A DNA stretch of 50,382 bases from a virus. Its lineage: Duplodnaviria > Caudoviricetes. The stretch is from positions 1 through 50,382 of IMG/VR virus record IMGVR_UViG_3300037634_004340. One strand, written 5' to 3'. Both the position numbers and the translations under genes were made by a program. The notes beneath the pieces are model-generated. The model ran no database searches. It had not been told where the DNA came from and saw only the letters and a list, made by a program, of their open reading frames with translations. Shown one piece after another: positions 19,454 through 41,375 of this stretch. The stretch's first letter is position 1. The number at the start of each line of letters is the position of its first letter.

Positions 19454-21370
19454 ATGAATGATATTATATCAATTTATAAACAAGGGCAAAATATACAATT
19501 GCCTAGTAATTTAGCTAATTTTAGAAATGTTACTATTTCAGATAGAGATAGAAGAGAGTATATATGTCAAAATCTAGGAATTATATTAAATTATTATTTA
19601 GGTTGGCATACAAGTACTGCATCTTTTGAAGCCGGAATTATTGCAACAGGTGACATGAATCAGTATCAATTAGAAAAATATAATAGTATTGCACCTATTC
19701 GTATTACTCCTTCATTTAGATTGGCCCCGGGTGAAGCAAAAAGAGTAGCTCAAAGATTAAAGTATGTACCAATGGTATGGTCAAAAGTAAGACATGGTTG
19801 GTATAGTAACTGTGATAGATATATAAAAGCTAATGAAGATCTTATTGTTAAAGATACTCAAACTCCTAGTGTTATAATTAATAAATATAAATTTAGAGGA
19901 AGTAGAAATAACTCCTTTAGAAATAATAATATAGATGTTAATACTGAGTTTTGGAATCTTCAAAGTGAACATTGGGAACAATCTACACAGAGAAGTGAAC
20001 AAAGTAGAATTGAAAATACTTATTATCATAGTAATAGAGATAGAGCATATGAGGATCTTTATTTAAGAGATTTTATTAATCCAAATACAGGAAATAATAA
20101 TTGGAGATATAGTTGGGATAGAAATTCATCTTCAGAATCATCACTTATAAACTTACAACATTATACAATTCAAAGTTTTTGTGCTGATGTGTTCAATTTA
20201 CTTAAAGAATCATTAACAATTAGAAGAAATACTCCTGAAATAGAATATAATGATGAAGAAGATTATACTCAAATGAGAGAGTTTCTTCTTAATCAAATAT
20301 CTGAAATTGATAGATGTAACACAATTGTTGAAAATATAGCAAGTATAAGAGAAGTGATATTAACTAAGTATCGAGGTTCTATTAAAATGTATATGAAATT
20401 TATATTAGAAGAACCACATATTGATATTAGTCATCCTTCTGGTAGCAGTGAGTATTCTTCTGTAACTAGGAATATAAAAGATATTAATGGTAATATTTCT
20501 GATTTCATAGGAGTTATTCAATTTGAATTAAGTCTTATAAATAATAAATTTAGAAGAAGAAATGTTATATTTTGTGGATATAATGATAATTCTCATGTAA
20601 ATCCTGGATTATATAATACAGCTAATCGTGATTCAAGAATAGCTAGAGTTATTAGAGGTATATTTAATTGTTTTACTTTAGATAGTCTCCAAAATAATAC
20701 TTGTCTTAGTGAATATGAACATGATATTATGTCTTCTATTAAAAGATTAGACTATTTAACAATGCTTATTAATATTGTTAGCTGGTATACTGTTTATGTA
20801 CCAGGTAGAACTAATCCTTATAGACATCCAAGACAATTATTCTTTGGTATTCCAAATGATATTCCTGAATGGTATAAAAGTCAGCATGATAGTAGTGTTG
20901 CAGCATGCGAAGCTCTTGTTATGACTGAATATGGTACAGGAGAAGCACGAAATGATAGTGAAACAGATATACTTAGACGTGTTACTGATGATAATTTAAA
21001 AGCATTATTGTTAAATCATTGTCATAATTGTTTTCATAATACTGATTGTCGTGTTAATTCTTATGCAAAAGGGATTGTTTATGGTGACAATGAAGTTGCT
21101 TATCAAGAAGCATTAATAGCACGTGAAGGGGCAATACAAATGCAAGAAGCGCTTGATCCTGGTGTAGCAGCTAGAGAGATTGAAGAAGAATCTGAATTAA
21201 GTCACAGTGAAGTTCAAGAGATTATTGAAGAAATTGTTGATACAGATCCTAGGCCTGCACATAGAAGAGTTGAACAGGTTATAGAATATGATGATCATGT
21301 AGTTCCGATTGAAACTGATCAAGAACGTACAATGAGATTAATGTCCGCCTGGAGTCAGGCAGAAAGGTAA
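19454..21370 (+). CDS. Large protein with a putative divergent E2 (UBC-like) domain and a Cys-rich region
   Basis: Beta-strands, then HVNP...NTCLSEY (Cys417), helices and SWY..Y...TNPY; distal C...CHNC..C; first gene of the JAB/E1/Ubl operon. The E2 call rests mainly on context. Confidence 0.45.
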   Translation: MNDIISIYKQGQNIQLPSNLANFRNVTISDRDRREYICQNLGIILNYYLGWHTSTASFEAGIIATGDMNQYQLEKYNSIAPIRITPSFRLAPGEAKRVAQRLKYVPMVWSKVRHGWYSNCDRYIKANEDLIVKDTQTPSVIINKYKFRGSRNNSFRNNNIDVNTEFWNLQSEHWEQSTQRSEQSRIENTYYHSNRDRAYEDLYLRDFINPNTGNNNWRYSWDRNSSSESSLINLQHYTIQSFCADVFNLLKESLTIRRNTPEIEYNDEEDYTQMREFLLNQISEIDRCNTIVENIASIREVILTKYRGSIKMYMKFILEEPHIDISHPSGSSEYSSVTRNIKDINGNISDFIGVIQFELSLINNKFRRRNVIFCGYNDNSHVNPGLYNTANRDSRIARVIRGIFNCFTLDSLQNNTCLSEYEHDIMSSIKRLDYLTMLINIVSWYTVYVPGRTNPYRHPRQLFFGIPNDIPEWYKSQHDSSVAACEALVMTEYGTGEARNDSETDILRRVTDDNLKALLLNHCHNCFHNTDCRVNSYAKGIVYGDNEVAYQEALIAREGAIQMQEALDPGVAAREIEEESELSHSEVQEIIEEIVDTDPRPAHRRVEQVIEYDDHVVPIETDQERTMRLMSAWSQAER

Positions 21371-21373
21371 GAT

Positions 21374-22312
21374 ATGGATGATAAATTCATAATGGCCCAA
21401 AAAGACTGGGATAAAATTATAGCTTATTCAAAAATGAGTTATGACAAATGGAAAACTGAAATCGGCGGCATGTGTGTCGCCCTTTTCGATGAAAAAAATA
21501 AAATTATGGTTATTTCAGATCCTGTAATTGGTAAACAAGAAGTATCTAGTACTCTTTGTACATTAGATAAGGAATGGCTTGCTGATTATTATGTAGAAAT
21601 GGCTGTAAAATATGGTACAAAAGTTAGATTTGTTTGGTGGCATAGTCATCACACAATGGGTGTAAGTTGGAGTGGTACTGATACTGATACAATGCAAGAG
21701 TTTAATCAAGGTGATTACTCTATGTCTTTAGTAGTTAATTTAGCAGAAAATCATACATTTAGAATAAGCTGGTGGAAACCTACATCTGGATATATTGATA
21801 CTAAATTAAAAGTATTAAAACCTGAATTTCAAGTAACTAAAGAAATGCAAGGAATTTTTGATGAATTAGTTACAAGACCAGCAAAAAGTATTACTAAAAT
21901 TAATACTAATATTTATAATAATGGTTGGAGTAATGCAGGATGGAGAAATCAATATAAACAGCCAGGTAATTATGGTCCAGGTTATGTTGATGCTCAGTTG
22001 ATGGATAGAACACAGACTCTTCAAGAGAAGTTTTGCGATACAATGGAAAAACTTTTAGATGAGGCGTTTACATATCAAAAGAAATGGCCTGATTTTGAGG
22101 AAGAATGGAAAGAAATTATAATAGATGCTGGAAAGCATGATATAGTTATTGAAGAATTTCCTAAATCAGAATTTGTTGAACTTACAGTAAAAGGAGAATT
22201 TCCTGATGCAACAGACTACTTTGAAAGCCCTGACCCTGAACTCTTTCTCACAAGAGGATGTACCGATGGATATGGGAATCCGCTACAGGAAAATCTGTTC
22301 AGAAATAGATAA
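21374..22312 (+). CDS. JAB/MPN+ (JAMM) metalloisopeptidase
   Basis: Intact EIGG...WWHSHHTMGVSWSGTD (E, HxH, S, D) motif. Confidence 0.9.
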   Translation: MDDKFIMAQKDWDKIIAYSKMSYDKWKTEIGGMCVALFDEKNKIMVISDPVIGKQEVSSTLCTLDKEWLADYYVEMAVKYGTKVRFVWWHSHHTMGVSWSGTDTDTMQEFNQGDYSMSLVVNLAENHTFRISWWKPTSGYIDTKLKVLKPEFQVTKEMQGIFDELVTRPAKSITKINTNIYNNGWSNAGWRNQYKQPGNYGPGYVDAQLMDRTQTLQEKFCDTMEKLLDEAFTYQKKWPDFEEEWKEIIIDAGKHDIVIEEFPKSEFVELTVKGEFPDATDYFESPDPELFLTRGCTDGYGNPLQENLFRNR

Positions 22313-22934
22313 ACATCATTACAGCATATTTGGTTGCGGAGCTATAGGTAGTTCCGCAGCTGTATGTCTTGCTAAACATAATGCTAGGCATTTTTATCTT
22401 TATGATAATGATACAGTTAGTCCAGAAAATATAGGTATTAGTATGTTTAGAGAATTTGACATAGGTGAATCTAAAGTTGAATCTCTGAAGGAAATACTTG
22501 AAATAGGTGGAACTAATAGTAAAATACAAGTACAACCTCATAAAGAGTGGTTAGATCAAGATTCCGCCTTTACAAGTTATAAAGATGGACTTAATATTGG
22601 TATTTTATGTTTTGATAATATGTATTCTCGTAAAGAGATTGCAGGTATATGTTTTAGAGATAAGTTTAATTATATAATAGATGCACGTATGGGTCGTGAA
22701 CAGATTCAGTTGTATACTGTTAAAAATATTAAAACTTATGAAAAATATTGGTATCCTGATTTTCAAGCAAGTAGTGATACTTGTGAAGAAAAAGGAACAC
22801 CAGATGTTAGTATGATTTCCGGATCACTTATAACATCACAAATCAGGAAAATTGTTAATAAACAACCTTATCCTGAAGAAGTTTGCTTTCACATTCCTAG
22901 CATGGCGCTAGAATGTAATACCATGGTAAAATAA
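22206..22934 (+). CDS. ThiF/E1-like adenylyltransferase (likely start 22266)
   Basis: GCGAIGS nucleotide loop, YDNDTV..ENI, K, CFDN...R and IIDARMG; candidate thioester Cys in DTCEEK. Confidence 0.92.
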   Translation: MQQTTLKALTLNSFSQEDVPMDMGIRYRKICSEIDKHHYSIFGCGAIGSSAAVCLAKHNARHFYLYDNDTVSPENIGISMFREFDIGESKVESLKEILEIGGTNSKIQVQPHKEWLDQDSAFTSYKDGLNIGILCFDNMYSRKEIAGICFRDKFNYIIDARMGREQIQLYTVKNIKTYEKYWYPDFQASSDTCEEKGTPDVSMISGSLITSQIRKIVNKQPYPEEVCFHIPSMALECNTMVK

Positions 22935-22946
22935 CAAGGAGGGCTT

Positions 22947-23153
22947 ATGCCTAATATACACTTAATGCACAACTCTGATAGCTTTGATCCAACAGATACA
23001 GAAGCTGTAACAGTTGGTGCTCTTAAAACAGAGCTTGGTGTACCTTCCACTTCTAGAGTTAACGTGAATACTGCAGTTGCGCAAGATTCCACCACATTGA
23101 ATGATGGTGATATTGTTGCAGTAGTTACAAAAGACAAAAAAGGTGGAAGATAG
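22947..23153 (+). CDS. Ubiquitin-like (beta-grasp) protein ending GG-R
   Basis: 68 aa; TVGALK helix, VNVN, LNDGDIVAVV, C-terminal KKGGR; AAGGAGG RBS. Confidence 0.85.
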   Translation: MPNIHLMHNSDSFDPTDTEAVTVGALKTELGVPSTSRVNVNTAVAQDSTTLNDGDIVAVVTKDKKGGR

Positions 23154-23167
23154 TTAACCCTATCATT

Positions 23168-23198
23168 AAAGTCCTCGGAGATTATTTCGGGGACTTTT
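23168..23198 (+). terminator. Intrinsic terminator closing the ubiquitin-like operon
   Basis: AAAGTCCTCGGA-gattat-TTCGGGGACTTT followed by T. Confidence 0.75.
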
Positions 23199-23212
23199 AA
23201 TTAAAGGACAAT

Positions 23213-29351: not shown

Positions 29352-29413
29352 ACAGATCGGGTAGTGTAATAGCGCTTTAAATGTAAGTCATTCTTACAGC
29401 CTGGCCTCTGTTT
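29350..29413. terminator. Branched stem-loop at the convergence of the two transcription units
   Basis: AAACAGA/TCTGTTT and CGGGT/GCCTG stems enclose two hairpins (AGTGT/GCGCT and TGTAAG/CTTACA). Confidence 0.5.
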
Positions 29414-32207
29414 ATGTTAAATATGTTTTTGCTGTAGCTTTCTTTCTATGCTGCTCAAGTTTTTCCAAAGCGTCTCTTATTTCTTTTGGTATTAATGCTG
29501 GATTTCCTATTGAACCTTCAAATGCATCTTTCTTTAACTCTTTAGATTCTTTAGTTTGATATAAACCTAATTCATATTGTAATCCTGAACCTATATTGCC
29601 TTGTAAAATACTAGGTAATGTTGAATATAATCCTCTTCCTAAAGCTACATTTAATAATCTAATAGTTTCATAAGCTTTTTTATCATCAGATTTTAATGCA
29701 TAGTCTTCATAACCTGTTAATAGCATTTGTAAAGTATCATCGTCCATATGAGTAAATTCCCATATATTACCTAATGCTAATGCATCTGATACTACAGGAG
29801 CTCCTATAAATGGTAGACCTGTTAAAACACCTTTGCCATAGTAAGCTTTTTTTATATCTTCTTCGTCACCTGTAAAGAGAGCCCATAGTTTATCTATTTG
29901 TTCTTTTACACTATGTTCTACTATATTTCCAAAGTCTAATCCAGTTACTGCTGATGCTATAGCAGGTGCCATGAAATATGTTAAACCCATCTTGTATGCT
30001 TTTTGTGCTCTAGCGCCAGTTATATCGCCTGCTAGTATATCATCACTTGCATTTAATGCTAAATCTTTATTGTATTCTAAGAACTTCATACTATAATGTT
30101 GGAACTGACCTAGTAATCTACCTGCAGGATTAGTTAACCATGAAGCTTTCGCTATATCAGCATAATCAAAATGCATTAATGATACTTTTTTAATAGCATA
30201 ATTTCTAGCTCTTTTAATAATTTCAGCTCTAATTTGTGTATCAGACATACCTTCTTTAGTTAAAGCAGCCTTATAATTAGTAGAGTTATCTAGCTGATTA
30301 TACATCTCATAAAAACCAGTTTTAAATGTAACCTTTCTATTCCAATTTTCAACTTTAGACATCATAAAACCACTTTTACCAGCGAATGCCTTTATTTTAT
30401 CATGTATTCCTGATAATGGAGAAGGTTTTCTAAATTCTATTGTTTCATTATTAGTTATTCGTATTTTCTTTGTAAAGTTTTTACCAACAGTTTGCCCTTC
30501 TACTAGTTCAGGAGGTGCGTCCGTGGAGAATAATATACCAGCCTCGTTCATCATGTCTTCCACTTTACGACTTAAAGTTAAATTATTTTTATAGAATGAA
30601 TTTGATTTAGCCATCATAATAGGGCCAAACTCTACGATATTTAATAGTCCTTGAGTTGCATTTTTAAATGGAGATCTTAAATTGAATCCCAATTTTGAAG
30701 TAAATTCTAACGCCAGAAGACTTCGCATAGCTAATTCAGCTGTTTCATTTTCAAATCCTTTAGAACCTTTCATACGTTTATTCATATCTTGCATCATCTC
30801 AACTGTACCGCTAGCAAATCCATCTAAAGGTTGACCATTTTTAAATAATTCTTTGGCTTGATTTAAAGATTCCCTAGTATATTTATCAGCATGAGAGATC
30901 ATATTAAATCTGTCTATCTCATCGACATATCTTTTTAAAGTGGGAAAGAAATTTCTTGAGTATTCATTCTTAGTATCAACCCCTTTACCTAAATCTACAT
31001 GAGCTCGACTCTTAGCTCTGCCAGATGTATACCCTCTTAATTCTGTGATAGCTTGTTCTACATTGTTAGAATTTGAATATAGGCTTTCAGATACAGCATC
31101 AGATACTCTTTGCAAGTGAGGCATTAAATTGTCTAAATAATCTGTATTTAATAATCTTCGATAATGAGGGAAATATCCTACTACTTTATCTGGTGTAATT
31201 TTTTTCTTTATATTAGTAACTATTTCGTCTAATTCTTTTGTACTATATTTACCAAGCATGCCAGCTCTTATTGAATCGACATAAGCATTTATTCCGCCTT
31301 CTAATACAGTATGCATTTCATTCATTAAATCCACATATTCTATTATAGCGTTACGCATAGAAGCAGATTTTATTTTCTCGCTTAAAATAGGCTGTAAAAC
31401 CTTAGAGCGTATACTTTCATACTTCTCTCTGGTCATCTTGCCTTTCATCATGTCCTTTTTATAGACTTTAGCCTGATCTAACCACTTACCTAAAGATTCT
31501 TGGTGTAACTTAGGGAGAACTTTTTCAACAGTCTCTAGCATTTCATTAAAAACTTTACCCTCGCCTTTAGTATAAAAATCGTCTTCTTTTTTCAAAGCAG
31601 AAGTTAATTTATTTTTTGCTCTAAGTACATTATTATATACATCTAATGAAAGTTTTTCTATATTAGCTTCAAATTCAGTAGCTTTTTTTGTAGCCTGAGC
31701 AACTTGCCTATCAATAGCTATAGCATTAGGCAAAACAGACTTTAATGGTTTAAAATCAGCTCCAAATCCTAATTCAAGCATATTTCTCTTCATATAGTTT
31801 AATATATTATTAAAAGATCTATTATGTCTATTTGTTCTACCTTGATATGCTAAGTTAACATTATGTAGATTGTCTGTAAGAGTAGCTAATTGAGGATTAT
31901 TCCTTGAGATAGAATCTGGTAAATAAAACATGGAACCAAACTTATGTGTAAGCGTTCCCTTTTCTGAAGCACTATTAACTTTAGCTAATTCTCTCCTAAA
32001 TGTTTTAAGTAAGCCTTTAGTATAAGGAATTTCAGCTACTCGCTCCATGCCCATATCGAATATCTTTTCATGGACAGTACGAACAATAGTATCTGTTTCT
32101 TTTCCAAATCTTTTCTGCATAGCTGGATTCTCAGTAAACTCAAGAGCTATTTTAAACATCTCTCCAGCTAAACCTGTTATGTCACAGCCTGGTCCAGTTG
32201 ATCTCAT
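29412..32207 (-). CDS. Large internal virion (DNA ejection) protein
   Basis: 931 aa, helical; LGFNLRSPFKNATQ, ENWNR, FDY, LGQFQHY resemble the C-terminal regions of large ejected proteins; next to the virion RNAP. Confidence 0.6.
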   Translation of the reverse strand: MRSTGPGCDITGLAGEMFKIALEFTENPAMQKRFGKETDTIVRTVHEKIFDMGMERVAEIPYTKGLLKTFRRELAKVNSASEKGTLTHKFGSMFYLPDSISRNNPQLATLTDNLHNVNLAYQGRTNRHNRSFNNILNYMKRNMLELGFGADFKPLKSVLPNAIAIDRQVAQATKKATEFEANIEKLSLDVYNNVLRAKNKLTSALKKEDDFYTKGEGKVFNEMLETVEKVLPKLHQESLGKWLDQAKVYKKDMMKGKMTREKYESIRSKVLQPILSEKIKSASMRNAIIEYVDLMNEMHTVLEGGINAYVDSIRAGMLGKYSTKELDEIVTNIKKKITPDKVVGYFPHYRRLLNTDYLDNLMPHLQRVSDAVSESLYSNSNNVEQAITELRGYTSGRAKSRAHVDLGKGVDTKNEYSRNFFPTLKRYVDEIDRFNMISHADKYTRESLNQAKELFKNGQPLDGFASGTVEMMQDMNKRMKGSKGFENETAELAMRSLLALEFTSKLGFNLRSPFKNATQGLLNIVEFGPIMMAKSNSFYKNNLTLSRKVEDMMNEAGILFSTDAPPELVEGQTVGKNFTKKIRITNNETIEFRKPSPLSGIHDKIKAFAGKSGFMMSKVENWNRKVTFKTGFYEMYNQLDNSTNYKAALTKEGMSDTQIRAEIIKRARNYAIKKVSLMHFDYADIAKASWLTNPAGRLLGQFQHYSMKFLEYNKDLALNASDDILAGDITGARAQKAYKMGLTYFMAPAIASAVTGLDFGNIVEHSVKEQIDKLWALFTGDEEDIKKAYYGKGVLTGLPFIGAPVVSDALALGNIWEFTHMDDDTLQMLLTGYEDYALKSDDKKAYETIRLLNVALGRGLYSTLPSILQGNIGSGLQYELGLYQTKESKELKKDAFEGSIGNPALIPKEIRDALEKLEQHRKKATAKTYLT

Positions 32208-32217
32208 TAGTTATCCT

Positions 32218-32874
32218 TTACTTATGCACTTTCTTTAAAAATTCTTTAGGTATCCCACCTGCTATTCCATAGTTATATACCAGCATATCACTATCATCAT
32301 AAAGAGATTTGCCTCTTAAATCGCTAATTTTTTCCATCTTCTCAAATTTACTTTTAGGGATTTCAAATTCTAAAACAGTCACCTTTTTTCCCTTTTTCCC
32401 CCATATTCTTGCTTCAGCAAAATTATTACTAACCCAAGCAGTTCCTTTGGATAGATCATCCTTTCCTGTTGAAGGATTAAATCTACTATAATCTGAGCCT
32501 ACAAACTTACCTTCTTTGACCATTTTGCCCGAATGCCACTTATCTACCCCTCTATATAAAGTCACCATTTCTTCACCAGCTTCTTTAGCGGCCTTTAAAG
32601 CTCTTTTACCAGCAACAAACTGTCCAATAATAGGAATAGCTGAAGCTCCTGACAATACAGCTTCTCCAAACTCTCCTTCAGCAGCATATAATAATGCATC
32701 CGCTGCATCAGCCACATTCCCATATCCAGGGGTAAAACCAGCAGCCATTAAAGCTGTATGAAGACCTTCAGTGCTAGTATCACTCTCTTGCTTAAAAAGA
32801 TTAGCAATAGTTTTGTCTGGCTCTGCAACTTGTAGCATATTATTAAAAGCTTCTGTGTCTATTTTATCTGGCAT
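32218..32874 (-). CDS. Polymorphic-toxin-like protein: pre-toxin TG domain plus ADP-ribosyltransferase-like C-terminus
   Basis: GFTPGYGNVADAADALLYAAEG...SAIPIIG (PT-TG-like), then TLYRG...WVS...A..W...VLEFEIP (ART R-S strands). Confidence 0.6.
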   Translation of the reverse strand: MPDKIDTEAFNNMLQVAEPDKTIANLFKQESDTSTEGLHTALMAAGFTPGYGNVADAADALLYAAEGEFGEAVLSGASAIPIIGQFVAGKRALKAAKEAGEEMVTLYRGVDKWHSGKMVKEGKFVGSDYSRFNPSTGKDDLSKGTAWVSNNFAEARIWGKKGKKVTVLEFEIPKSKFEKMEKISDLRGKSLYDDSDMLVYNYGIAGGIPKEFLKKVHK

Positions 32875-35800
32875 TATTTAGGGCAAGCTCTTGCAGCTTT
32901 ATTAAACTCATTAAAAGAATCTCTTACTGACCCTGAAGATTTCTGACTCTCTTTTATATCACGGCCTTGCTTTATAAACTTACGCAGCATACTTAATCTA
33001 TATTCACTTAATAATGCTAATGGTTTTATTGAAGCTCCACCAGATGAACCTGCCATTAATGCTAATTCAGGGCTCATGCTATAACCACTTATCTCAGAAA
33101 CACCTTCTTCGCCTATTCCTTTAGTTATTACTTTACCAAGACCCATCTCTGTTAACTTCTGACGAACACCTTCTTGCATAAGATGATAAGATATAGGATC
33201 TAAATAGTTATTTTGCATCATTAACTGATTAGTATAAGATAACGCTGTCTCTAGCTTTTTATAGTCAGGGCCTTTATGATTTAATAGCTTTGTATTTATA
33301 AGATTTCTAAAAAACTCTATATTAGTATCATATTCAGGACCCATTCCAAAGACATCTTTATTAAACACGCCTTTTTCAGTATTTATAGACTCATATCTAT
33401 CCCAAGTATTTACAAGTTTACGACTATATCCAGGAACATTATTAATAATACCGAGTATACCCTGATCATTTGTTGGAATTAATCCAAAATTACCGTCAAA
33501 GAAATTACTATAAGCAGAATAACGCTTAGTTAAGTGCTCTATTGTAAGTTTTAAATTGTTTTTTTCTTGATGATTTGTCTCATTATTAAACTTATCTAGT
33601 AAAAACTTAACAACTCTTTTAAACCTACCAGACGCTTTAGAACTAACAGCTATGGGATTACCGTTATATATACCTATTGTAGTCTCAGCTTTAGTAGGCA
33701 TTGCATATTCTAGTAAAAAAGGCATACCATGATCCCCATAACCTTGATTTAACGCTAAAGCTAAATACTCTTCAACCTCCATAGGATCTTTTTTAGTACT
33801 CATCCTTTTTTTCATCATCTCAGGATTTATCTGAGTCATCTCTTGATATTCAGAAGTTGTGCCCGCACTAAAGTATTCACTATATTCTTGAGCAGTTTCA
33901 GCCTTTAAAGCTGTAACTTCTTTATAGAAATTACTTACATCGCCTGCAGTTGTAAACTTTTGACTTAACTCATGAAGAGTATACCATTGAACGGTCCCTT
34001 CAAGCATATCTTTATCTCTAGAAATATCTACAAACTTTATACCCTCTAAATACTTAGCATCACCTGTTTTTAAGTATTTATCCGGGAGATAGCCTTTTAA
34101 TACAGCTTCTTTTTCTTTAATTAATTCAATTAAAGATTCTATTCTGGCTTTTCTTAAATTCTCAGGAATCTCTTTATTTCTAGCTATATTTCCTATTTGT
34201 CTTTTCCAATATTTAATTATCTTAACATCTGAGTTTACCTTACCTGTTAATTGAGGTATGATTTCACGCATACGATCAGTTAAATTGCCTTCTCCAAATG
34301 ACTCTTTAGAGTAGATTATTTCATTAGCGACTGCCTGCATTTCTTTAAAGCCTTCACCCTGGAGTAAGATATTCCCTTTTCCATTATTACCTAAAGGATC
34401 GTTATGCATTATCTCTCTATAAATTCTTTCTACAACAGAGCCGTGATCACCTCCAGAAGCAGCAGTCATTATACCTTTATCCATAGCACCTTGCACTAAA
34501 GGAGACTCGTTCCACCATCTATACATATATTTGCCAGACGATTTATTGTCACCCCTCTCTCTCATTAACGCTGCATCATATTCCTCTAAAGCCTTCCCAT
34601 ATAACTTATCAGCTGTCTTGTTATATTTAGCCCTAAGTTTTTGATGAGGTTTAAACATTGATTTTACTAATTCATTGTCACCATGTTTAGCTTTTACGTT
34701 TTTATAAATTGTACTCGTCATGTCCTCTAAATGTCCAAAATAAGCATGAGTTATAGACATTATATCTTCATATTTTGCAGGACTACCTTGACCTGTATTA
34801 TCATATACTTCAGTACTTAAAGTTAATAATCTGCCATGCTCAGACATTAAAGTTTTTATAATAGTTCTTTCTTCAGGAGTTAAATCGTATTCTCCTGTAG
34901 GATTATCTTCAGTTTTAGGACCAAATTTTCTAAACAATCTAATTCTACTATTTTGAGGACCCTTAACACTTTGCGCCGTCTTTTGCGCAGATAAACTTGG
35001 AACATCGTCTTTAGATATAGATTTATCCATTATAGGGAAGAGATAATCATTTCTCCAATCCATCATCTTATTTACAATTCTTTGATCGACGCCTTTCCAA
35101 TAATCAATAATAAGCTGGGATTCTAAGGCAGATCTTTCAAAAAAGCTAGCATTGTCATAGTCTACAGATACAGTAAACTCATTCTCTCCATGTGTGTATT
35201 TTAATAAATCTTTACGCCCAGTTGTTTCATTAGTAGTGCCCAGCTCAGATAAATGGTTTACTAGCCTAACAGTTTTCTGTACAAGTCCTATGCCTTTTTT
35301 AAGCACTCTATTATTACCATCAAATGTATTCCAACCAGCATTTTCTCTCCCAGAATTAGATAAACTAAGTTCAGGAACCTTTCCTTCATAATTACCTGTA
35401 TTTACAGTATTTACCCAGTGCCGTTGTACTCTTTGATTGTGTTCCCAGGTACCTCTATTCATACCCCAAAAGAAGTCAATTTCATCTACATCGTAATCAC
35501 CTTCAAATATATTAAGAACATCAAAGTCATTAGCTATAGCTGTGTTTCCATGGTCTTTACCTAGGAATCCTTTAAGTCTAAGTATAGCTAAATCATTAGG
35601 CGTAGTCCTTGGATAACGTGTAGTCATTATACCTACAGCTAAGTCTTCCCCTAAGGCTTTATTTAATACTTCAATTTCTGAATGCAATAAGCCTAAGTTT
35701 CCATCAATAGTAGTTTTCTCCCAGAAATCTCTAAAGCTTAACTTAAGTCTATCGCCTTGCTTTTTCAGCAGAGCATCGTATTCGTTATACATTTTCTCAA

Positions 35801-38800
35801 GTCTTTGCTTTAAAGGGAATACTCCACCATTATTATCCACGATCCTAAGCTCTAAGTCTTTGGTTTTTCCTGAGAAATCAATCGAACCTCTAGCTGTAAA
35901 TTCAGGAAGCATTATATCGCCATGGAATATTTTAGTGTCTTCTTTCTCACCCGTACGAACAGTAGGCTTTAAATTTCTAAATTCAAAATTCTGTTTTAAT
36001 ACAGACTTACCACCATAAGCATTACCACCCATAATAGAAGGAGGGCTCATAATAGGATCTAGGAAGTGAGATTTCACCGCATCTATTAATACGCCTTCGC
36101 CTAACATCCTTACATCTCCACCCATAGCAGCTATTTGCATATGATGTCCTAAGTTCTCAAGACCTTCAGGGCTATTCTGCATATCTTCTAGCGTTGTACG
36201 AGGATCTATTTTTTTAAGTTTTAGTAAAGCTAATCTTTTATATAAACCATCTTCAACAAACTTAGCCATTGTACCATCTACTAATAATTTGTCTAATCTG
36301 TTTTTATAGAAAGCGTTATAATATTCACCAGCCTCAATAGATTCCATATAATTAGGAATAGAGTATGATTGCCTAGCTGGCATTTCAGCTTCAGGTATAA
36401 TGCTAATACCTACTTTATCTTTAGGTATAGTTCTAATAAACCGATCTATTTCCGAACCCTCTATTTTAATCATTTGATCAACAGTTTTATCTATATATCT
36501 AGGTCGATCCTGATTAGAGCTCTTTTCCCACTCCGCCTGAGATATAGCTGATTTCATCTTATCTGCACTGCGAGTTATAATCATATCTAAATTTTTACTT
36601 TTGCCAAATATCTCAGATTGAATATGAGGATCATATACAAACACTGTTTTAGCATACATCATATCATTTCCTTCACCATTAGATGATACGATAGGCTTAA
36701 AGACAGCAGCTCCAGTAGTTCCATAATACAGATTTAAAAAGTCAGCATAATCTTTAGAAATAAACGATATACTGTCATAACTAGACTCATCATTTCTGTC
36801 GCCAAGCATTTTCTTCCAACTAGTGCCTCTAAACTTTAATGCTTCCTCATTTCTTGTTGAAACTTTAGCATGATCTTTATCATTCCAAACTATATAGCCT
36901 AAATCTCTTTTTTCAAAACTTCTTAATAAATTCATATCAGAAACATTAGTTAAGCTTTTTCTTAATGCAACTAATAAATCAGCATCCATACGTCTAAACG
37001 ATGGAGTATGAAAAAGACTAACTCTCTTACTCATTTCAGCTAACTCTGGGCTATTCATCGTTAATGTTTCTAAGAATCGTCCTTGTACTTTACTGACAAG
37101 CATATCATTTATAATGATAGATCTCATTGCATCTTCATGTACAGCGCTCCAAGTTTTAGTCTTCTCGAGATTATCCATCATCTCTTTTAATCGACTGCCT
37201 TGTGGATTCTTCATATCTTTTTTATAATACGGTTTAAATATCTTTTCTCTATAAAGTTCAGCAACTTCTTTAAAACTAGACTCAGGAACACCAATTGGAT
37301 TTTTAGCATTACCCATACGAATAATAGCCATCCCTTTATGATCTCCAGTAGCTTCATCCCAAGTATATCTTTTTATAGTATCATAAAAATGTTTTTGTTG
37401 AGCCTCAGCAAACTGTTTACCTCGACGGTCCGTAGATACTGATGAATCATAATCTAATACATTTAGGGAAGCAGATTTTACCTTCCCTCCTTTAAAGTAA
37501 TGTGTAAAAGATTCGCCATTAACAAAGACATAAGGGATACCAGATTCATCTAGAAGATCCGTAAATGGACTTCTCTGCTGGTTTTTCATCTTAGACACAG
37601 GATCACCCCGGTTTACACTTAACTCAGGTTTAGAGATCGTTCCCTTTCTTAATATAAATATTTTTTGAACATCTCTTGAAGCTCTTATATATTCAGCTTG
37701 ATAGTTTGGATTAGATACAACTTCACTACCTGTGACTTTATTTCCACCTATAGTGAACTCCATTTGCTCTATAAGTCTTTCGTGTGGATTTTCATTTACA
37801 TCTTTAGTAGTTGGGTTATATAATGCTTTTTCTATTAAATCGTTTTGCTCTACAGCTTCTTGATATTTACTACCCATTCCTCGTTCTAATGGAAAATACT
37901 TCTCAAAGAAACCTTGTTGTGTCATAGCACTACTATGGTCTTTAAATTTAGATCGGACGTCTAAATCAATATCCGCTGAACTTATTTTATTCTCTATATC
38001 CGACATATATACGCCAGATTTTTGTAACCATTCCTGTAATTCTGATCTAACTTCAGCTTTTAGCTCTCCAGTATCAGTAAGGAAATCTTTATTTATAATA
38101 TATTCAAGAGTATTTTGTCTTTTATTAGTCGTTATAAGACCTTTACTTATCATATTAAAAAGTAAATCGTTAGGCCTTTCAGCATTTTCTACCCATTGAA
38201 CCAAACCATGTTTTAATGGATCTGCTCCATTTAATGTAGCAATAAAGTCTATTAAAGTTTCTTGAGCCTGTTGTTGCTGTTTTGCTTCAGATTTTCTTAT
38301 AATTGTATCTAAACCAATAGCTTCTTGTTTACTAACCCGAATACCTCTGCGTGTAACTCTATCAGACACAGTCGTAGTTATAGCCCCATCAAAGTCCATT
38401 ATAGATTCATCTAAATTTATAAATGACTTACCCTCATAAGTGGCTCTTTTTATTAAATTATATATATAATCATTATATCTTTTAGCTAGTTTATAATGAG
38501 TTGTCCTCCCGTCTAGAATAGATAAATCTATTTTTCTAACAGAGAAACCGGTACCACCATCAACTGTAGTACTGTAATTTGCAAATGGAAGTTCTAACCC
38601 AGATAAATCTGCAAGAATAGCGACATCATTATTAGTTATTTCTGTATTTTTTATAATTTCAGATGTAATTCTTTGAGTAATATTAGCCCTAAACATATCT
38701 AATATCTCTTTTTGAGTATTTATCTTATTGGCGTTTAAATATTCATTAAGTTCATGTATTTTTTCTACTTTAATTGTAACTTTATCTGTGGTATTTACAT

Positions 38801-41375
38801 TTATAGACTTATTCCCTTTAGTAGCTAATATACCTATAACTGATTTTAATAAAGCCTCTTCATTCCCACCTTTGTAATCAAGCTCTCCCTTGTCAATTTC
38901 TACATTATGGAATGAAAGTAAATCAAATAAAGGTAAATCTTCTTTTGTAGCATCTTTTCTATCAGCTCTTGGTTTTATTATACCTACATCTACAAGCCTG
39001 GATCGTAATTCACCAAACTTTTCATTTTTTGTATCATCAAAAAACTCAGATATTAAATCCATACTTTTATGACCATGTCTAATCATTAATGGAGCTGTAT
39101 AATGGTCCATCTCATTAAAGGTAAAGTTCAAAGATTTCTTTCCAGTATTAAACTTTTCATTAACACGTTGCTCTCCAAGTCTCACTTGCTCTACCATACT
39201 TCTAACTTGAGCTTCACTAGTTAATTCAGCATGCCATTCAGCTGGATTAGAGGTTATTTCACCTTTCATAATACCATTATTAATTTCTATTAATTTGTTT
39301 GTACTTTGTTGAGCTTTTAAAACAGTTTCAATTTCAAGTCCTTCATAATTACCTTTTTTAATAGCATCAAGTAGTCGCTGATTTATAGTTACCATTTCAG
39401 GCAATGTACCTAAACTTCCACTACTAGGATCATTTAAAGACCAATTGTCTGTAGAATTATTAAGTATTTCCCTAAGGCTATGCCCTAATTCACGCTCTAA
39501 AGAATCAGTCAATTCTTCAGTAGACTCTCTCATTATATCTTTAAAGTCTTGTAATGTCTTTATTTTTTTAGTGCCGAAAGAAACTTTTTTAATTACTCTT
39601 TCTATTTCAATCATTTCTTTTTCAGTAATTTGTGCTGTAGGTTTTACAGATAATTCTCCAGAGGCACCCGCAATCCATTTCATAAACTCATTAAATAAAG
39701 GTCTATCTACCTTAGATGCTCCTATTGTTGGAGATCCGTCTTTTGTACTTATTACTAAATCTTCATTATTCTCGCCTATTATACCTAATTCTCGGGCTTT
39801 ATCTCTAAGTTCTTTAAAAGCAGGATTTGTTAATGGATTAATACTTGCAAATTGATCTTCTGATAATGTAGGATATAAATCATACATATGTGTTTGTGGA
39901 GTACCGTGTACATGTAGTCCTCTTCGTAATGCTGACATTTTTTGCATATTCATATCAGGGGTAAGAGGTCTACCTTTTCTATTAATAAATGCTCCAATTA
40001 ATAAAGAAGTAGCTATATCTTCAGCAGGCATTTCATAGCCTTTAGATAAATCTATCATTGTTCTTGCATTCATTATTGCTGTACCGGCTATAACTCTAGG
40101 CCAATTAGCTAAAGTACTTTGGAAGTCTTCAGTTACAGCTGCTAGCATCATATCTCGGCCGTATTTTCTCTTTTGTCCTTCTAGAGCAGCTCTTAGTACT
40201 TCTGTAGCTTTTGCTTTATTTCCACCTACATGCGTTAATATATTACTCATAGGATCTTGAAGATTAATTTCCATTCCTTTATAAGATATAATAGATGATT
40301 CTCCGTTAAGCTGTAAGCTTTTACCTATTAATTCAGAATGCTTTTTCAATTCTGTTTCAGACAACCCTTTATATCTAGGCTTGGAAAATAAAGTTTTAAC
40401 TCCAGCCATAAAATCATCACTAGTAATAGAAGATTTACCTGCTGCAGGAAGTAACTTAAGTGTACCAAATGCAGCACCTACACCTACACCCCATAAAGGA
40501 GCTGTAAAATCATAAGGTCTATCGTCGTGAATTGAATGAGATACTTCCATAGCTGCGTCTATTAATCCAAACATAACACCTTCTTGAATCATACTTCCTA
40601 CTACAAAACCGAATTTATTAGGATGTCGCTTCATCATTAAATCAACAAAATCTTGCATAGGCCTTGTGCCTATGTTTTTATCGAACTGCTCTCTTATAAG
40701 TCTAGCTTGCTTGTGAGTTATATCGCCCCTTATAACACCACCCTTAACAACTTCTTTAATAGCTTTGCTAGCTGAATCACCCCAATTAGTAGCAACACCT
40801 TTAGCTGCTTCTGTAAACCTAGCTGTATGAGCTGTATGAATAAGTCTTTTCTTTATAGTCTTATCAACTAAGTTTTTAGCTGTTTTAGTACCACCCTCTT
40901 TAAATATTGTAGCACTAGTCTTCTTAACTATTTGGTCTACCGTCTCTGCCCCAACCTTCTTAATAATTGGCTTAGCTAATAAGCTTGTAGCTTTAGCACC
41001 AACTTTCATAGGAGCACCCCATATAAAACCTAGTGTACCACCAATAGCAGAGCCTACTTTACCAGGTATTGTTTGTGGAGTTAAATAATTTTCTTCCAGC
41101 TCTTTACCAAAAAGATAATTTGATGCAGGAGCTAAAGTTCCAAAAGCAGCTTCATCAGCAAAAGACCATAAACCTTGCCCTACCATATCTATAAGGGCAT
41201 TTCTCTTCTCACGAACTTGTACATCTTGTTTTACATCAAATTGGTTATAATCAGGTATTGCATCTGACTCCATGAAGTTTGGAGTTTTAAAGTATTCATC
41301 TAAAGTATTTGTTTGTATTCCACCTAAGCTATTCTCGTCTTCAGTGTTATAGTATACATCATATAAGCTTGGCAT
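32874..41375 (-). CDS. Giant virion-packaged double-psi beta-barrel RNA polymerase (crAss-like)
   Basis: 2833 aa; TTRYPRT about 40 aa before EGDYDVDE (DxDxD catalytic loop); YAKT and SADK upstream; hydrophobic N-terminal helices; sits in the ejection cluster. Confidence 0.8.
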   Translation of the reverse strand: MPSLYDVYYNTEDENSLGGIQTNTLDEYFKTPNFMESDAIPDYNQFDVKQDVQVREKRNALIDMVGQGLWSFADEAAFGTLAPASNYLFGKELEENYLTPQTIPGKVGSAIGGTLGFIWGAPMKVGAKATSLLAKPIIKKVGAETVDQIVKKTSATIFKEGGTKTAKNLVDKTIKKRLIHTAHTARFTEAAKGVATNWGDSASKAIKEVVKGGVIRGDITHKQARLIREQFDKNIGTRPMQDFVDLMMKRHPNKFGFVVGSMIQEGVMFGLIDAAMEVSHSIHDDRPYDFTAPLWGVGVGAAFGTLKLLPAAGKSSITSDDFMAGVKTLFSKPRYKGLSETELKKHSELIGKSLQLNGESSIISYKGMEINLQDPMSNILTHVGGNKAKATEVLRAALEGQKRKYGRDMMLAAVTEDFQSTLANWPRVIAGTAIMNARTMIDLSKGYEMPAEDIATSLLIGAFINRKGRPLTPDMNMQKMSALRRGLHVHGTPQTHMYDLYPTLSEDQFASINPLTNPAFKELRDKARELGIIGENNEDLVISTKDGSPTIGASKVDRPLFNEFMKWIAGASGELSVKPTAQITEKEMIEIERVIKKVSFGTKKIKTLQDFKDIMRESTEELTDSLERELGHSLREILNNSTDNWSLNDPSSGSLGTLPEMVTINQRLLDAIKKGNYEGLEIETVLKAQQSTNKLIEINNGIMKGEITSNPAEWHAELTSEAQVRSMVEQVRLGEQRVNEKFNTGKKSLNFTFNEMDHYTAPLMIRHGHKSMDLISEFFDDTKNEKFGELRSRLVDVGIIKPRADRKDATKEDLPLFDLLSFHNVEIDKGELDYKGGNEEALLKSVIGILATKGNKSINVNTTDKVTIKVEKIHELNEYLNANKINTQKEILDMFRANITQRITSEIIKNTEITNNDVAILADLSGLELPFANYSTTVDGGTGFSVRKIDLSILDGRTTHYKLAKRYNDYIYNLIKRATYEGKSFINLDESIMDFDGAITTTVSDRVTRRGIRVSKQEAIGLDTIIRKSEAKQQQQAQETLIDFIATLNGADPLKHGLVQWVENAERPNDLLFNMISKGLITTNKRQNTLEYIINKDFLTDTGELKAEVRSELQEWLQKSGVYMSDIENKISSADIDLDVRSKFKDHSSAMTQQGFFEKYFPLERGMGSKYQEAVEQNDLIEKALYNPTTKDVNENPHERLIEQMEFTIGGNKVTGSEVVSNPNYQAEYIRASRDVQKIFILRKGTISKPELSVNRGDPVSKMKNQQRSPFTDLLDESGIPYVFVNGESFTHYFKGGKVKSASLNVLDYDSSVSTDRRGKQFAEAQQKHFYDTIKRYTWDEATGDHKGMAIIRMGNAKNPIGVPESSFKEVAELYREKIFKPYYKKDMKNPQGSRLKEMMDNLEKTKTWSAVHEDAMRSIIINDMLVSKVQGRFLETLTMNSPELAEMSKRVSLFHTPSFRRMDADLLVALRKSLTNVSDMNLLRSFEKRDLGYIVWNDKDHAKVSTRNEEALKFRGTSWKKMLGDRNDESSYDSISFISKDYADFLNLYYGTTGAAVFKPIVSSNGEGNDMMYAKTVFVYDPHIQSEIFGKSKNLDMIITRSADKMKSAISQAEWEKSSNQDRPRYIDKTVDQMIKIEGSEIDRFIRTIPKDKVGISIIPEAEMPARQSYSIPNYMESIEAGEYYNAFYKNRLDKLLVDGTMAKFVEDGLYKRLALLKLKKIDPRTTLEDMQNSPEGLENLGHHMQIAAMGGDVRMLGEGVLIDAVKSHFLDPIMSPPSIMGGNAYGGKSVLKQNFEFRNLKPTVRTGEKEDTKIFHGDIMLPEFTARGSIDFSGKTKDLELRIVDNNGGVFPLKQRLEKMYNEYDALLKKQGDRLKLSFRDFWEKTTIDGNLGLLHSEIEVLNKALGEDLAVGIMTTRYPRTTPNDLAILRLKGFLGKDHGNTAIANDFDVLNIFEGDYDVDEIDFFWGMNRGTWEHNQRVQRHWVNTVNTGNYEGKVPELSLSNSGRENAGWNTFDGNNRVLKKGIGLVQKTVRLVNHLSELGTTNETTGRKDLLKYTHGENEFTVSVDYDNASFFERSALESQLIIDYWKGVDQRIVNKMMDWRNDYLFPIMDKSISKDDVPSLSAQKTAQSVKGPQNSRIRLFRKFGPKTEDNPTGEYDLTPEERTIIKTLMSEHGRLLTLSTEVYDNTGQGSPAKYEDIMSITHAYFGHLEDMTSTIYKNVKAKHGDNELVKSMFKPHQKLRAKYNKTADKLYGKALEEYDAALMRERGDNKSSGKYMYRWWNESPLVQGAMDKGIMTAASGGDHGSVVERIYREIMHNDPLGNNGKGNILLQGEGFKEMQAVANEIIYSKESFGEGNLTDRMREIIPQLTGKVNSDVKIIKYWKRQIGNIARNKEIPENLRKARIESLIELIKEKEAVLKGYLPDKYLKTGDAKYLEGIKFVDISRDKDMLEGTVQWYTLHELSQKFTTAGDVSNFYKEVTALKAETAQEYSEYFSAGTTSEYQEMTQINPEMMKKRMSTKKDPMEVEEYLALALNQGYGDHGMPFLLEYAMPTKAETTIGIYNGNPIAVSSKASGRFKRVVKFLLDKFNNETNHQEKNNLKLTIEHLTKRYSAYSNFFDGNFGLIPTNDQGILGIINNVPGYSRKLVNTWDRYESINTEKGVFNKDVFGMGPEYDTNIEFFRNLINTKLLNHKGPDYKKLETALSYTNQLMMQNNYLDPISYHLMQEGVRQKLTEMGLGKVITKGIGEEGVSEISGYSMSPELALMAGSSGGASIKPLALLSEYRLSMLRKFIKQGRDIKESQKSSGSVRDSFNEFNKAARACPK

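Follow-up and report, generated by a model that had tools for sequence, protein, structure and literature searches.

A predicted ubiquitin-like protein precursor in a phage-borne cassette with a JAB peptidase, a minimal E1-like enzyme and a putative E2-like protein

Introduction

In the Bil system of bacteria a ubiquitin-like protein (Ubl), BilA, is encoded together with an E2 (BilB), a JAB peptidase (BilC) and an E1 (BilD). Passages of the report on BilC describe how the E. aridi enzyme cuts BilA between G97 and A98, one residue from its end, and also cleaves conjugates, and they mention Type II BilA homologs with up to nine extra residues (10.1101/2023.09.26.559546). Maturation by JAMM peptidases is likewise described, in the relevant sections of another study, for QbsE of the thioquinolobactin pathway, which ends GG-CF and is processed by QbsD, and for CxnE of the chuangxinmycin pathway, in which ten residues follow the GG and the peptidase is CxnF (PMC5925218). 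In the Bub system, as outlined in the published account, the pre-protein BubAB is cut by BubCD immediately after a conserved Gly (PMC11601596). Phages are represented by tail assembly protein I (TAPI) of Lambda and T1, a Ubl with a C-terminal Gly whose release by the JAB of protein K was predicted by Iyer and colleagues (PMC1779556). Bil, Bub and CBASS type II are bacterial anti-phage defenses; the cassette that we describe here belongs to a phage.

The DNA that we analyzed is an IMG/VR record of 50,382 bp with an estimated completeness of 92% and a G+C content of 33%; we refer to this whole stretch as the window. Its structural genes, among them those for an SU10-type capsid protein, a P22-type portal and a terminase, lie on the minus strand, and a replication block on the plus strand carries Sak4-like, primase-helicase, resolvase and Cas4-like nuclease genes. 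The samples that match the window are marine metagenomes, with no RNA data set among the 24 runs listed, and its source is a marine podovirus-like phage. The cassette sits in the replication region, on the strand opposite to the structural genes. A first-pass annotation of this DNA had proposed a cascade of Ubl, E1 and JAB. All three genes are borne out, with a ThiF-family E1 and a JAB protein adjoining the Ubl, and a fourth conserved gene at 19454-21370, which that annotation had overlooked, encodes a protein of 638 residues (p638).

Judged by its genes, the cassette works like Bil, which corresponds to operon type 6d of Iyer et al.: the same four kinds of gene are present, and in both systems the Ubl is made with residues beyond its reactive Gly. 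The differences are nevertheless substantial. This cassette is phage-encoded and lies beside replication genes rather than in a bacterial defense locus. Its Ubl is a 67-residue ThiS-like domain, and the putative E2 is contained within a protein of 420-835 residues that has an insert between the HP and Cys positions and a Cys-rich tail. The E1 is a single domain of 222 residues, whereas the Bil E1 is described as a tandem IAD-AAD-CYS protein in the pertinent passages of the Bub study (PMC11601596), and the PADLOC BilD match to the phage E1 spans only positions 214-355 of the 453 in that profile. PADLOC assigned neither the Ubl nor the large protein to any family, and hence to no Bil model. Judged from its single-domain E1, the absence of a PADLOC Bil match for the Ubl and p638 and its location in a phage, the cassette falls outside Bil.

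Resemblance to CBASS type II Cap2/Cap3 and to Bub lies in E1-like, E2-like and peptidase activities that act on a C-terminal Gly, and the E1 here matches the adenylation domains of both Cap2 and BubCD. However, CBASS, a bacterial system, lacks a separate Ubl and joins E1 and E2 in one protein, and in Bub, also bacterial, the peptidase is not of the JAB type and is attached to an E1 without a catalytic Cys. As in tail assembly protein I, some homologs of the Ubl described here bear a domain of 30-60 residues after the GG, but the tail assembly protein I/K pair is encoded in a tail module and comes with neither an E1 nor an E2-like gene. A last parallel is yeast Atg8, from which a single C-terminal Arg is removed by Atg4 before E1 activation. 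Atg4 belongs to the cysteine proteases and Atg8 has a lipid as its target; the resemblance is one of analogy only.

Removal of one residue from BilA by BilC has already been published, so a capped-precursor mechanism would not be new. What is new is a phage-borne system that is Bil-like but distinct, in which the E1 is minimal and the E2-like protein is giant and bears an insert. Our literature search, which covered article listings and passages, found no description of a phage-borne cassette of this kind.

Results

The cassette is syntenic across viral relatives

Scans of IMG/VR identified 335 relatives with an alignment of the JAB and 375 with an alignment of the E1; the best 80 from each scan were kept, and the two sets overlap. 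Alignments were needed for this purpose, as one E1 sequence used as the query retrieved no loci. A JAB with an intact HxHx7SxxD motif is encoded in 72 of the 80 E1-anchored loci, and the other eight end less than 450 nt upstream of the E1. Among these best 80 of 375, the JAB accompanies the E1 in every locus that has at least 669 nt of upstream sequence (72/72), and a p638 homolog lies immediately upstream of the JAB in every locus that has at least 2600 nt (57/57). We relied on the E1-anchored count because the corresponding figure for the JAB-anchored loci, 79 of 79 with an intact JAMM motif, is circular, those loci having been found by that motif. In most of the loci examined the order is Ubl, large protein, JAB, E1, and it is only in the clade of the window that the Ubl follows the E1.

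Beyond IMG/VR the cassette was rarely encountered. Neither blastn nor tblastn with the operon, the Ubl or the JAB gave a match in 50,697 deposited phage genomes, and a JAB scan of one genome from each of 185,579 species returned three loci only. Two of the three, in Deltaproteobacteria metagenome-assembled genomes (MAGs), share the Ubl-X-JAB-E1 order and encode Ubls with the endings GG-N and GG-M.

An invariant diglycine is followed by a labile tail

The Ubl gene occupies positions 22947..23153 of the plus strand and encodes 68 residues, beginning MPNIHLMH and ending VVTKDKKGGR, with GGT GGA AGA TAG as its final codons (23142-23153). This reading of the ORF and its translation bears out the earlier observation that the protein ends in KKGG, a single Arg and a stop. 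The protein is a ThiS-type beta-grasp domain: it matches Pfam ThiS (PF02597) with an E-value of 1.7e-5 and 25.7 bits, above the curated cut-off of 22.5, and the Ubl of a related locus (L083) does so at 1.3e-7. Gly66 and Gly67, encoded by GGT GGA at 23142..23147 (+), form the predicted activation site, and the predicted mature form comprises residues 1-67. In an alignment of 49 Ubl homologs V60, K64, G66 and G67 are invariant. Beyond the predicted mature form lies a one-residue cap, Arg68, encoded by AGA at 23148..23150 (+) and followed directly by TAG.

The Arg68 codon is genuine. Contigs from three other marine samples span 23142-23152 unchanged, and a fourth sample gave no contig there. One of the contigs is a variant that keeps the Arg codon in spite of 24 differences elsewhere in a 321-base stretch, and in one the stop alone differs, by TAG>TAA at 23153. 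Eleven database proteins are 75-100% identical to the Ubl, of which two end GGR, one being the window's own, and nine end GGK. Contigs from three samples and eleven of eleven homologs ending GG-K or GG-R thus rule out a sequencing artifact, a possibility that the first-pass annotation had named as one that would refute its interpretation.

We collected Ubl homologs with a profile, which gave 63 ORFs in the JAB-anchored set (62 loci and the window) and 53 in the E1-anchored set, or 86 unique sequences. The GG and whatever follows it could be read in all 86, one GGG case being ambiguous by a residue, and K-x-G-G is kept throughout. What lies beyond the GG is a different matter: no tail is present in 31 of the 86, and the other 55 carry between 1 and 60 unrelated residues with no common tail sequence. 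Tails of a single residue were found in 17 unique sequences (K in 10, C in 5, R and Q in one each), tails of two and of three residues in 12 each, tails of 4-18 residues in 11, and tails of 30 or 60 residues in 3. In a tree of 85 E1 proteins, made by a quick maximum-likelihood method and with 27 of its 82 inner branches unresolved, the tail appears or disappears at least 10 times, and close sisters differ from one another (K and none, K and DKE, C and SY). An invariant GG beside a free-running tail is expected if everything past the GG is removed before use, and the pattern supports the view that the Ubl is a precursor cut after the GG. The first-pass annotation had predicted that homologs would combine a conserved GG with a variable tail, and the 86 unique homologs agree with that prediction.

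The peptidase and the E1-like enzyme retain their signature motifs

The JAMM/JAB metallopeptidase is encoded at 21374..22312 (+) and has 312 residues, of which about 1-160 make up the JAB domain and the remainder a variable C-terminal half. The E...HxHx7SxxD signature is intact, and E29, H90, H92, S100 and D103 are invariant in 22 sequences. PADLOC returned generic JAB models alone (E 3.1e-4), and the match to Pfam Prok-JAB (E 0.073, 13.4 bits) falls under the cut-off of 25. The family profile, by comparison, best matches the Rpn11-like structure 6fjv at an E-value of 3.2e-6, followed by Rpn11 chains at about 0.03. By this profile comparison the nearest solved relatives of the JAB appear to be Rpn11-like deubiquitinases.

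The E1-like adenylyltransferase lies at 22266..22934 (+) and overlaps the end of the JAB gene by 41-47 nt. Its ORF opens at 22206; conservation, however, begins near the ATGs at 22266 and 22272, which gives a protein of about 222 residues. This single adenylation domain, which has no rhodanese domain, matches Pfam ThiF at an E-value of 1.6e-19 (70.5 bits, cut-off 28.1). All 65 aligned sequences keep the GCGAIGS loop and, in ORF numbering, R26, D67, D137, R142 and C193; the last of these, which would lie in a crossover loop, is the putative catalytic Cys. Profile matches in the PDB include UBA5, MccB, ThiF, MoeB, Cap2 and BubCD; in NCBIfam the closest models, those for ThiF and MoeB, all score below their cut-offs.

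The fourth conserved protein is probably UBC-like

The gene for p638 is located at 19454..21370 (+). Members of its family range from 420 to 835 residues, and in the protein of the window a putative UBC/E2-like domain at about 270-470 is followed by a Cys-rich segment. C417 is invariant, and C485, C523, C526 and C532 are each conserved at 92% or more. The family consensus reads HP[FY]IS...C.G[DN]...T.PLN, with the Cys invariant. The window's protein has N-P where HP aligns, and 33 residues run from P384 to C417, compared with 8 between Pro and Cys in the MAG relatives.

Searches that rely on named families did not place this protein. It has no family in Pfam, PHROG, NCBIfam or PADLOC, and Pfam E2 models matched none of 53 family members. 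A search of BFVD returned 7 viral proteins without names and nothing else, the ESM Atlas gave no usable match, a PDB profile search with the family produced coiled-coil noise only, and the best 150 of 411 relatives in a representative library gave no bridge to named E2 families that could be followed. A TrmO_C match was dismissed as sub-threshold (19.8 bits against a cut-off of 27.1).

Two lines of evidence point to a UBC-like fold. The first is structural. AlphaFold2 with the family alignment modeled the whole of p638 at a pLDDT of 79 and residues 262-545 at a pLDDT of 85 and a pTM of 0.84. In VIA comparisons this domain aligned with RWD and E2 chains at Z 4.3-6.3, values that, by the tool's own warning, lie in the range of common arrangements (Z under 8). 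The matches include the RWD domain of Listerin (Z 6.2, rmsd 3.7, 105 aligned residues), the Knl1 RWD (Z 6.0), FANCL (Z 5.4) and chain C of the bacterial E1-E2-Ubl complex 8TYZ (Z 5.0, rmsd 3.8, 105 aligned), which, judged from its length, would be the E2; Ubc9, UBE2O, E2S, Ube2K, E2 J2 and UbcH10 follow at Z 4.4-4.9. Folds other than UBC (P1 head protein, HPF, BPI-like) reach similar Z against the same domain, and Foldseek found nothing in the PDB at an E-value of 1e-3 or better for either the whole protein or the domain. Residues 28-262, upstream of the domain, show weak VIA matches to polymerase fingers at Z of about 4.

The second and stronger line comes from the X proteins of the MAG loci. 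These read HPH[VI]xxxGxxC[LW]GN, invariant in six relatives, and the spacing of HPH[VI]xxxGxxC is one that we take to be that of the E2 active-site motif. An hhalign comparison joins the phage p638 family to the MAG X-protein family (85.5%, E 5.7e-6) over 57 columns in which HP, Cys and NP are aligned. The MAG-family profile gave colinear, sub-threshold rows for E2 A and UBE2L6 in the PDB (E 0.5-0.9), and a search for MAG-type X proteins found 5 relatives, none carrying a name. Taken with the models, these comparisons lead us to regard p638 as probably UBC-like. A complex prediction with E1, Ubl and residues 262-545 of p638 gave a score of 0.00 and a mark of 0.32, a result that speaks neither for nor against binding.

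Discussion

Conjugation or sulfur transfer

What we observed is the sequence and fold family of the Ubl, the motifs, a cassette of four strictly syntenic genes and a tail that changes readily; from these we infer a scheme that includes every chemical step, the cutting enzyme, the part played by the E2-like protein and the targets. Cleavage after Gly67 would come first, most likely by the Rpn11-like JAMM peptidase of the cassette itself. The minimal ThiF-type E1 would then adenylate Gly67 and probably take the Ubl onto the invariant Cys193, from which it could be passed to the invariant Cys417 in the UBC-like domain of p638 and on to protein targets of the host or the phage. The JAB could also reverse the conjugates. 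We hold with moderate confidence that the gene encodes a genuine ThiS-fold Ubl precursor that feeds a phage-borne conjugation cascade of JAB, E1 and E2-like proteins.

The most serious competitor is a sulfur-carrier system, in which a Ubl of the ThiS/MoaD/QbsE type would be trimmed by the JAB, adenylated by the E1 and thiocarboxylated with the help of a host donor; p638 would then be a Cys-rich, sulfur-using enzyme, whose substrate for thiolation could be, for example, a nucleotide, a tRNA or a cofactor. A JAB-matured ThiS-like protein and a ThiF-like E1 equally make up known sulfur-carrier pathways. The best Pfam family of the Ubl is ThiS itself, the E1 is a bare adenylation domain of ThiF/MoeB size whose nearest NCBIfam models, below their cut-offs, are those two proteins, and the four further conserved cysteines of p638 could hold a metal or a cluster. 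QbsE and CxnE are sulfur carriers matured by JAMM peptidases, and like the cassette their clusters, as portrayed in the sections of that study devoted to them, pair a ThiS/MoaD-like protein bearing residues after its GG with a neighboring JAMM peptidase and ThiF-like activation (PMC5925218). Marine viromics has, moreover, filed thiF, moeB and mec under "sulfur relay system" in the portions of two surveys that list such genes (PMC10134843; PMC8276007).

Several features do not fit this picture. The Qbs and Cxn clusters serve small-molecule biosynthesis and use a rhodanese-bearing E1 (MoeZ), whereas the E1 here, at about 222 residues, has no rhodanese domain, genes for a sulfur donor or for biosynthesis were not found in the window, and the product of the fourth conserved gene resembles a UBC protein. 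A scan of the 36 other ORFs of the window detected no rhodanese, cysteine desulfurase, PP-loop or radical-SAM domain, and thus neither a linked sulfur donor nor a sulfur-accepting biosynthetic enzyme in a genome that is roughly 92% complete; a donor could be supplied by the host. The models of p638 are UBC/RWD-like with an HP...Cys motif, unlike known sulfur-transfer enzymes, and the nearest solved relatives of the JAB are deubiquitinases. We therefore consider a sulfur carrier unlikely and clearly favor conjugation over it.

If proteins are indeed conjugated, the cassette would show a virus employing ubiquitin-like tags in prokaryotic hosts and would offer a small, tractable set of E1, E2, Ubl and deubiquitinase. 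It is possible, and we put it forward tentatively, that hundreds of marine phages carry a self-contained Ubl conjugation machine that tags host or phage proteins during infection and so mirrors the Bil defense. Were this the case, much of what marine viromics records as "sulfur relay" genes (thiF, moeB, mec) would be this cassette, which may in any event form part of those gene counts, and such genes would have to be interpreted differently; p638 would belong to the UBC fold as a branch not recognized before, its active-site loop carrying an insert. The proposal lends itself to a direct search for targets: as the Ubl ends K-K-G-G, trypsin should leave Gly-Gly on the target lysines, and di-Gly remnant proteomics could reveal them.

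Who trims the Ubl and what the cap is for

The JAB of the cassette is the obvious candidate for trimming the Ubl, in view of its intact JAMM motif, its Rpn11-like character, its partnership with the E1 in 72 of 72 loci and the precedent of BilC. The first-pass annotation went further and proposed that the JAB licenses the cascade by removing the cap. That idea is weakened by the homologs, 36% of which (31/86) are uncapped and yet keep an intact JAB. As these 31 need no trimming, trimming cannot explain why the JAB is conserved, and capping is not a conserved control step. The constant job of the JAB is more likely to be deconjugation or recycling, and the cap probably has no regulatory function of its own. 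If the peptidase cuts after the GG whatever follows, the stop codon is free to drift, which would give tails of 0-60 residues.

The same 31 tailless homologs that retain a JAB lend some weight to a different division of labor, in which a host carboxypeptidase or another protease does the trimming and the cassette JAB only deconjugates or acts on another substrate. A single basic C-terminal residue is, in addition, an easy carboxypeptidase substrate. Tails of up to 60 residues, however, require an endopeptidase that cuts exactly after the GG, and JAB enzymes make precisely such cuts in the Bil and Qbs systems. We regard trimming by a protease from outside the cassette as improbable and retain the JAB as the candidate.

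A further possibility is that the Ubl keeps its cap and acts non-covalently, for example by serving as a beta-grasp adaptor or by decoying an E1 or JAB of the host. This is compatible with sequence-based results in which neither cleavage nor conjugation appears, but a non-covalent adaptor would not be expected to keep K-x-G-G invariant next to a free-running tail or to occur so strictly with an E1 whose adenylation residues are intact, and we consider this very improbable.

Expression signals around the Ubl gene

An AAGGAGG Shine-Dalgarno (SD) sequence at 22936..22942 (+) lies 4 nt upstream of the Ubl ATG. The motif is not enriched across the window, where it occurs 8 times against 5.2 expected and where 14 of 100 shuffles reach 8. 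When the 25 nt ahead of each start were scored against a generic anti-SD sequence, the duplex at the Ubl start (-11.9 kcal/mol) was the second strongest of 43 start sites; those of the three upstream cassette genes are -3.5, -5.9 and -6.7 kcal/mol. This site had earlier been taken to suggest that the Ubl is the most abundant product of the operon. The suggestion stands as a rank of predicted SD strength only; the rank fits a product needed in stoichiometric amounts.

Directly 3' of the Ubl stop is a terminator-like hairpin at 23165..23201 (+), detected by comparing folding with shuffles and not among the predictions of a consensus terminator scan. The segment 23154-23212 folds at -18.7 kcal/mol (z -3.98), and none of 200 shuffles is as good. 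With so strong a hairpin right after its stop codon, the Ubl gene is probably the last of its transcription unit.

Ubl tails and cassette composition

Homologues of the ubiquitin-like protein (Ubl) at loci L043 (674-1111), L044 (13-450) and L092 (1079-1393) carry an extra segment after the diglycine, which is 60 residues long in two of them and about 30 in the remaining one. These proteins look like Ubl-X fusion pre-proteins, and such pre-proteins would require an endopeptidase that cuts exactly after the GG. In the clade of Ubls with an NKSGG motif, whose genes lie some 1.6 kb upstream of JAB (L008, L009, L015, L019, L020, L027, L036, L040, L046, L049 and L063), the tail often has a cysteine within it or at its end (C, CQ, SSC), and these cysteine tails alternate with SY among near-identical phages.

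Three loci, L065, L113 and L149, encode the large protein, JAB and E1 and include at least 4,000 nt of upstream sequence, yet the Ubl profile found no Ubl reading frame in them. Their Ubl may lie farther away, be too diverged or be absent.

The Ubl-X-JAB-E1 cassette seen in phages is also found on two contigs of metagenome-assembled Deltaproteobacteria genomes (L083, 3273-6291; L084, 850-4994), where X, a relative of the large protein, has a canonical-looking HPH..G..C motif. Because a short integrase-like reading frame (2582-2752) lies directly upstream of the L083 cassette, this copy could belong to a mobile element or be what is left of a prophage.

JAB and E1 in the window

The E1 reading frame (+ strand) opens at 22206, inside the JAB gene (21374-22312, + strand), and shares the last 107 nt of that gene (22206-22312). 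Even from the likely E1 start codons, at 22266 and 22272, an overlap of 41-47 nt with JAB remains, suggesting that the two genes are translationally coupled. The C-terminal half of JAB (residues ~165-312) is weakly conserved across the family and matched no known family.

Structural arm and probable fibre genes

Two reading frames of the structural arm on the - strand, of 2833 (32874-41375) and 931 residues (29412-32207), gave no family hit in Pfam or PHROG under the thresholds applied. Two adjacent - strand reading frames (2-2649) contain concanavalin-like lectin (Laminin_G_3) domains, with weaker Pfam matches to further lectin-fold families, and they probably encode receptor-binding fibre proteins.
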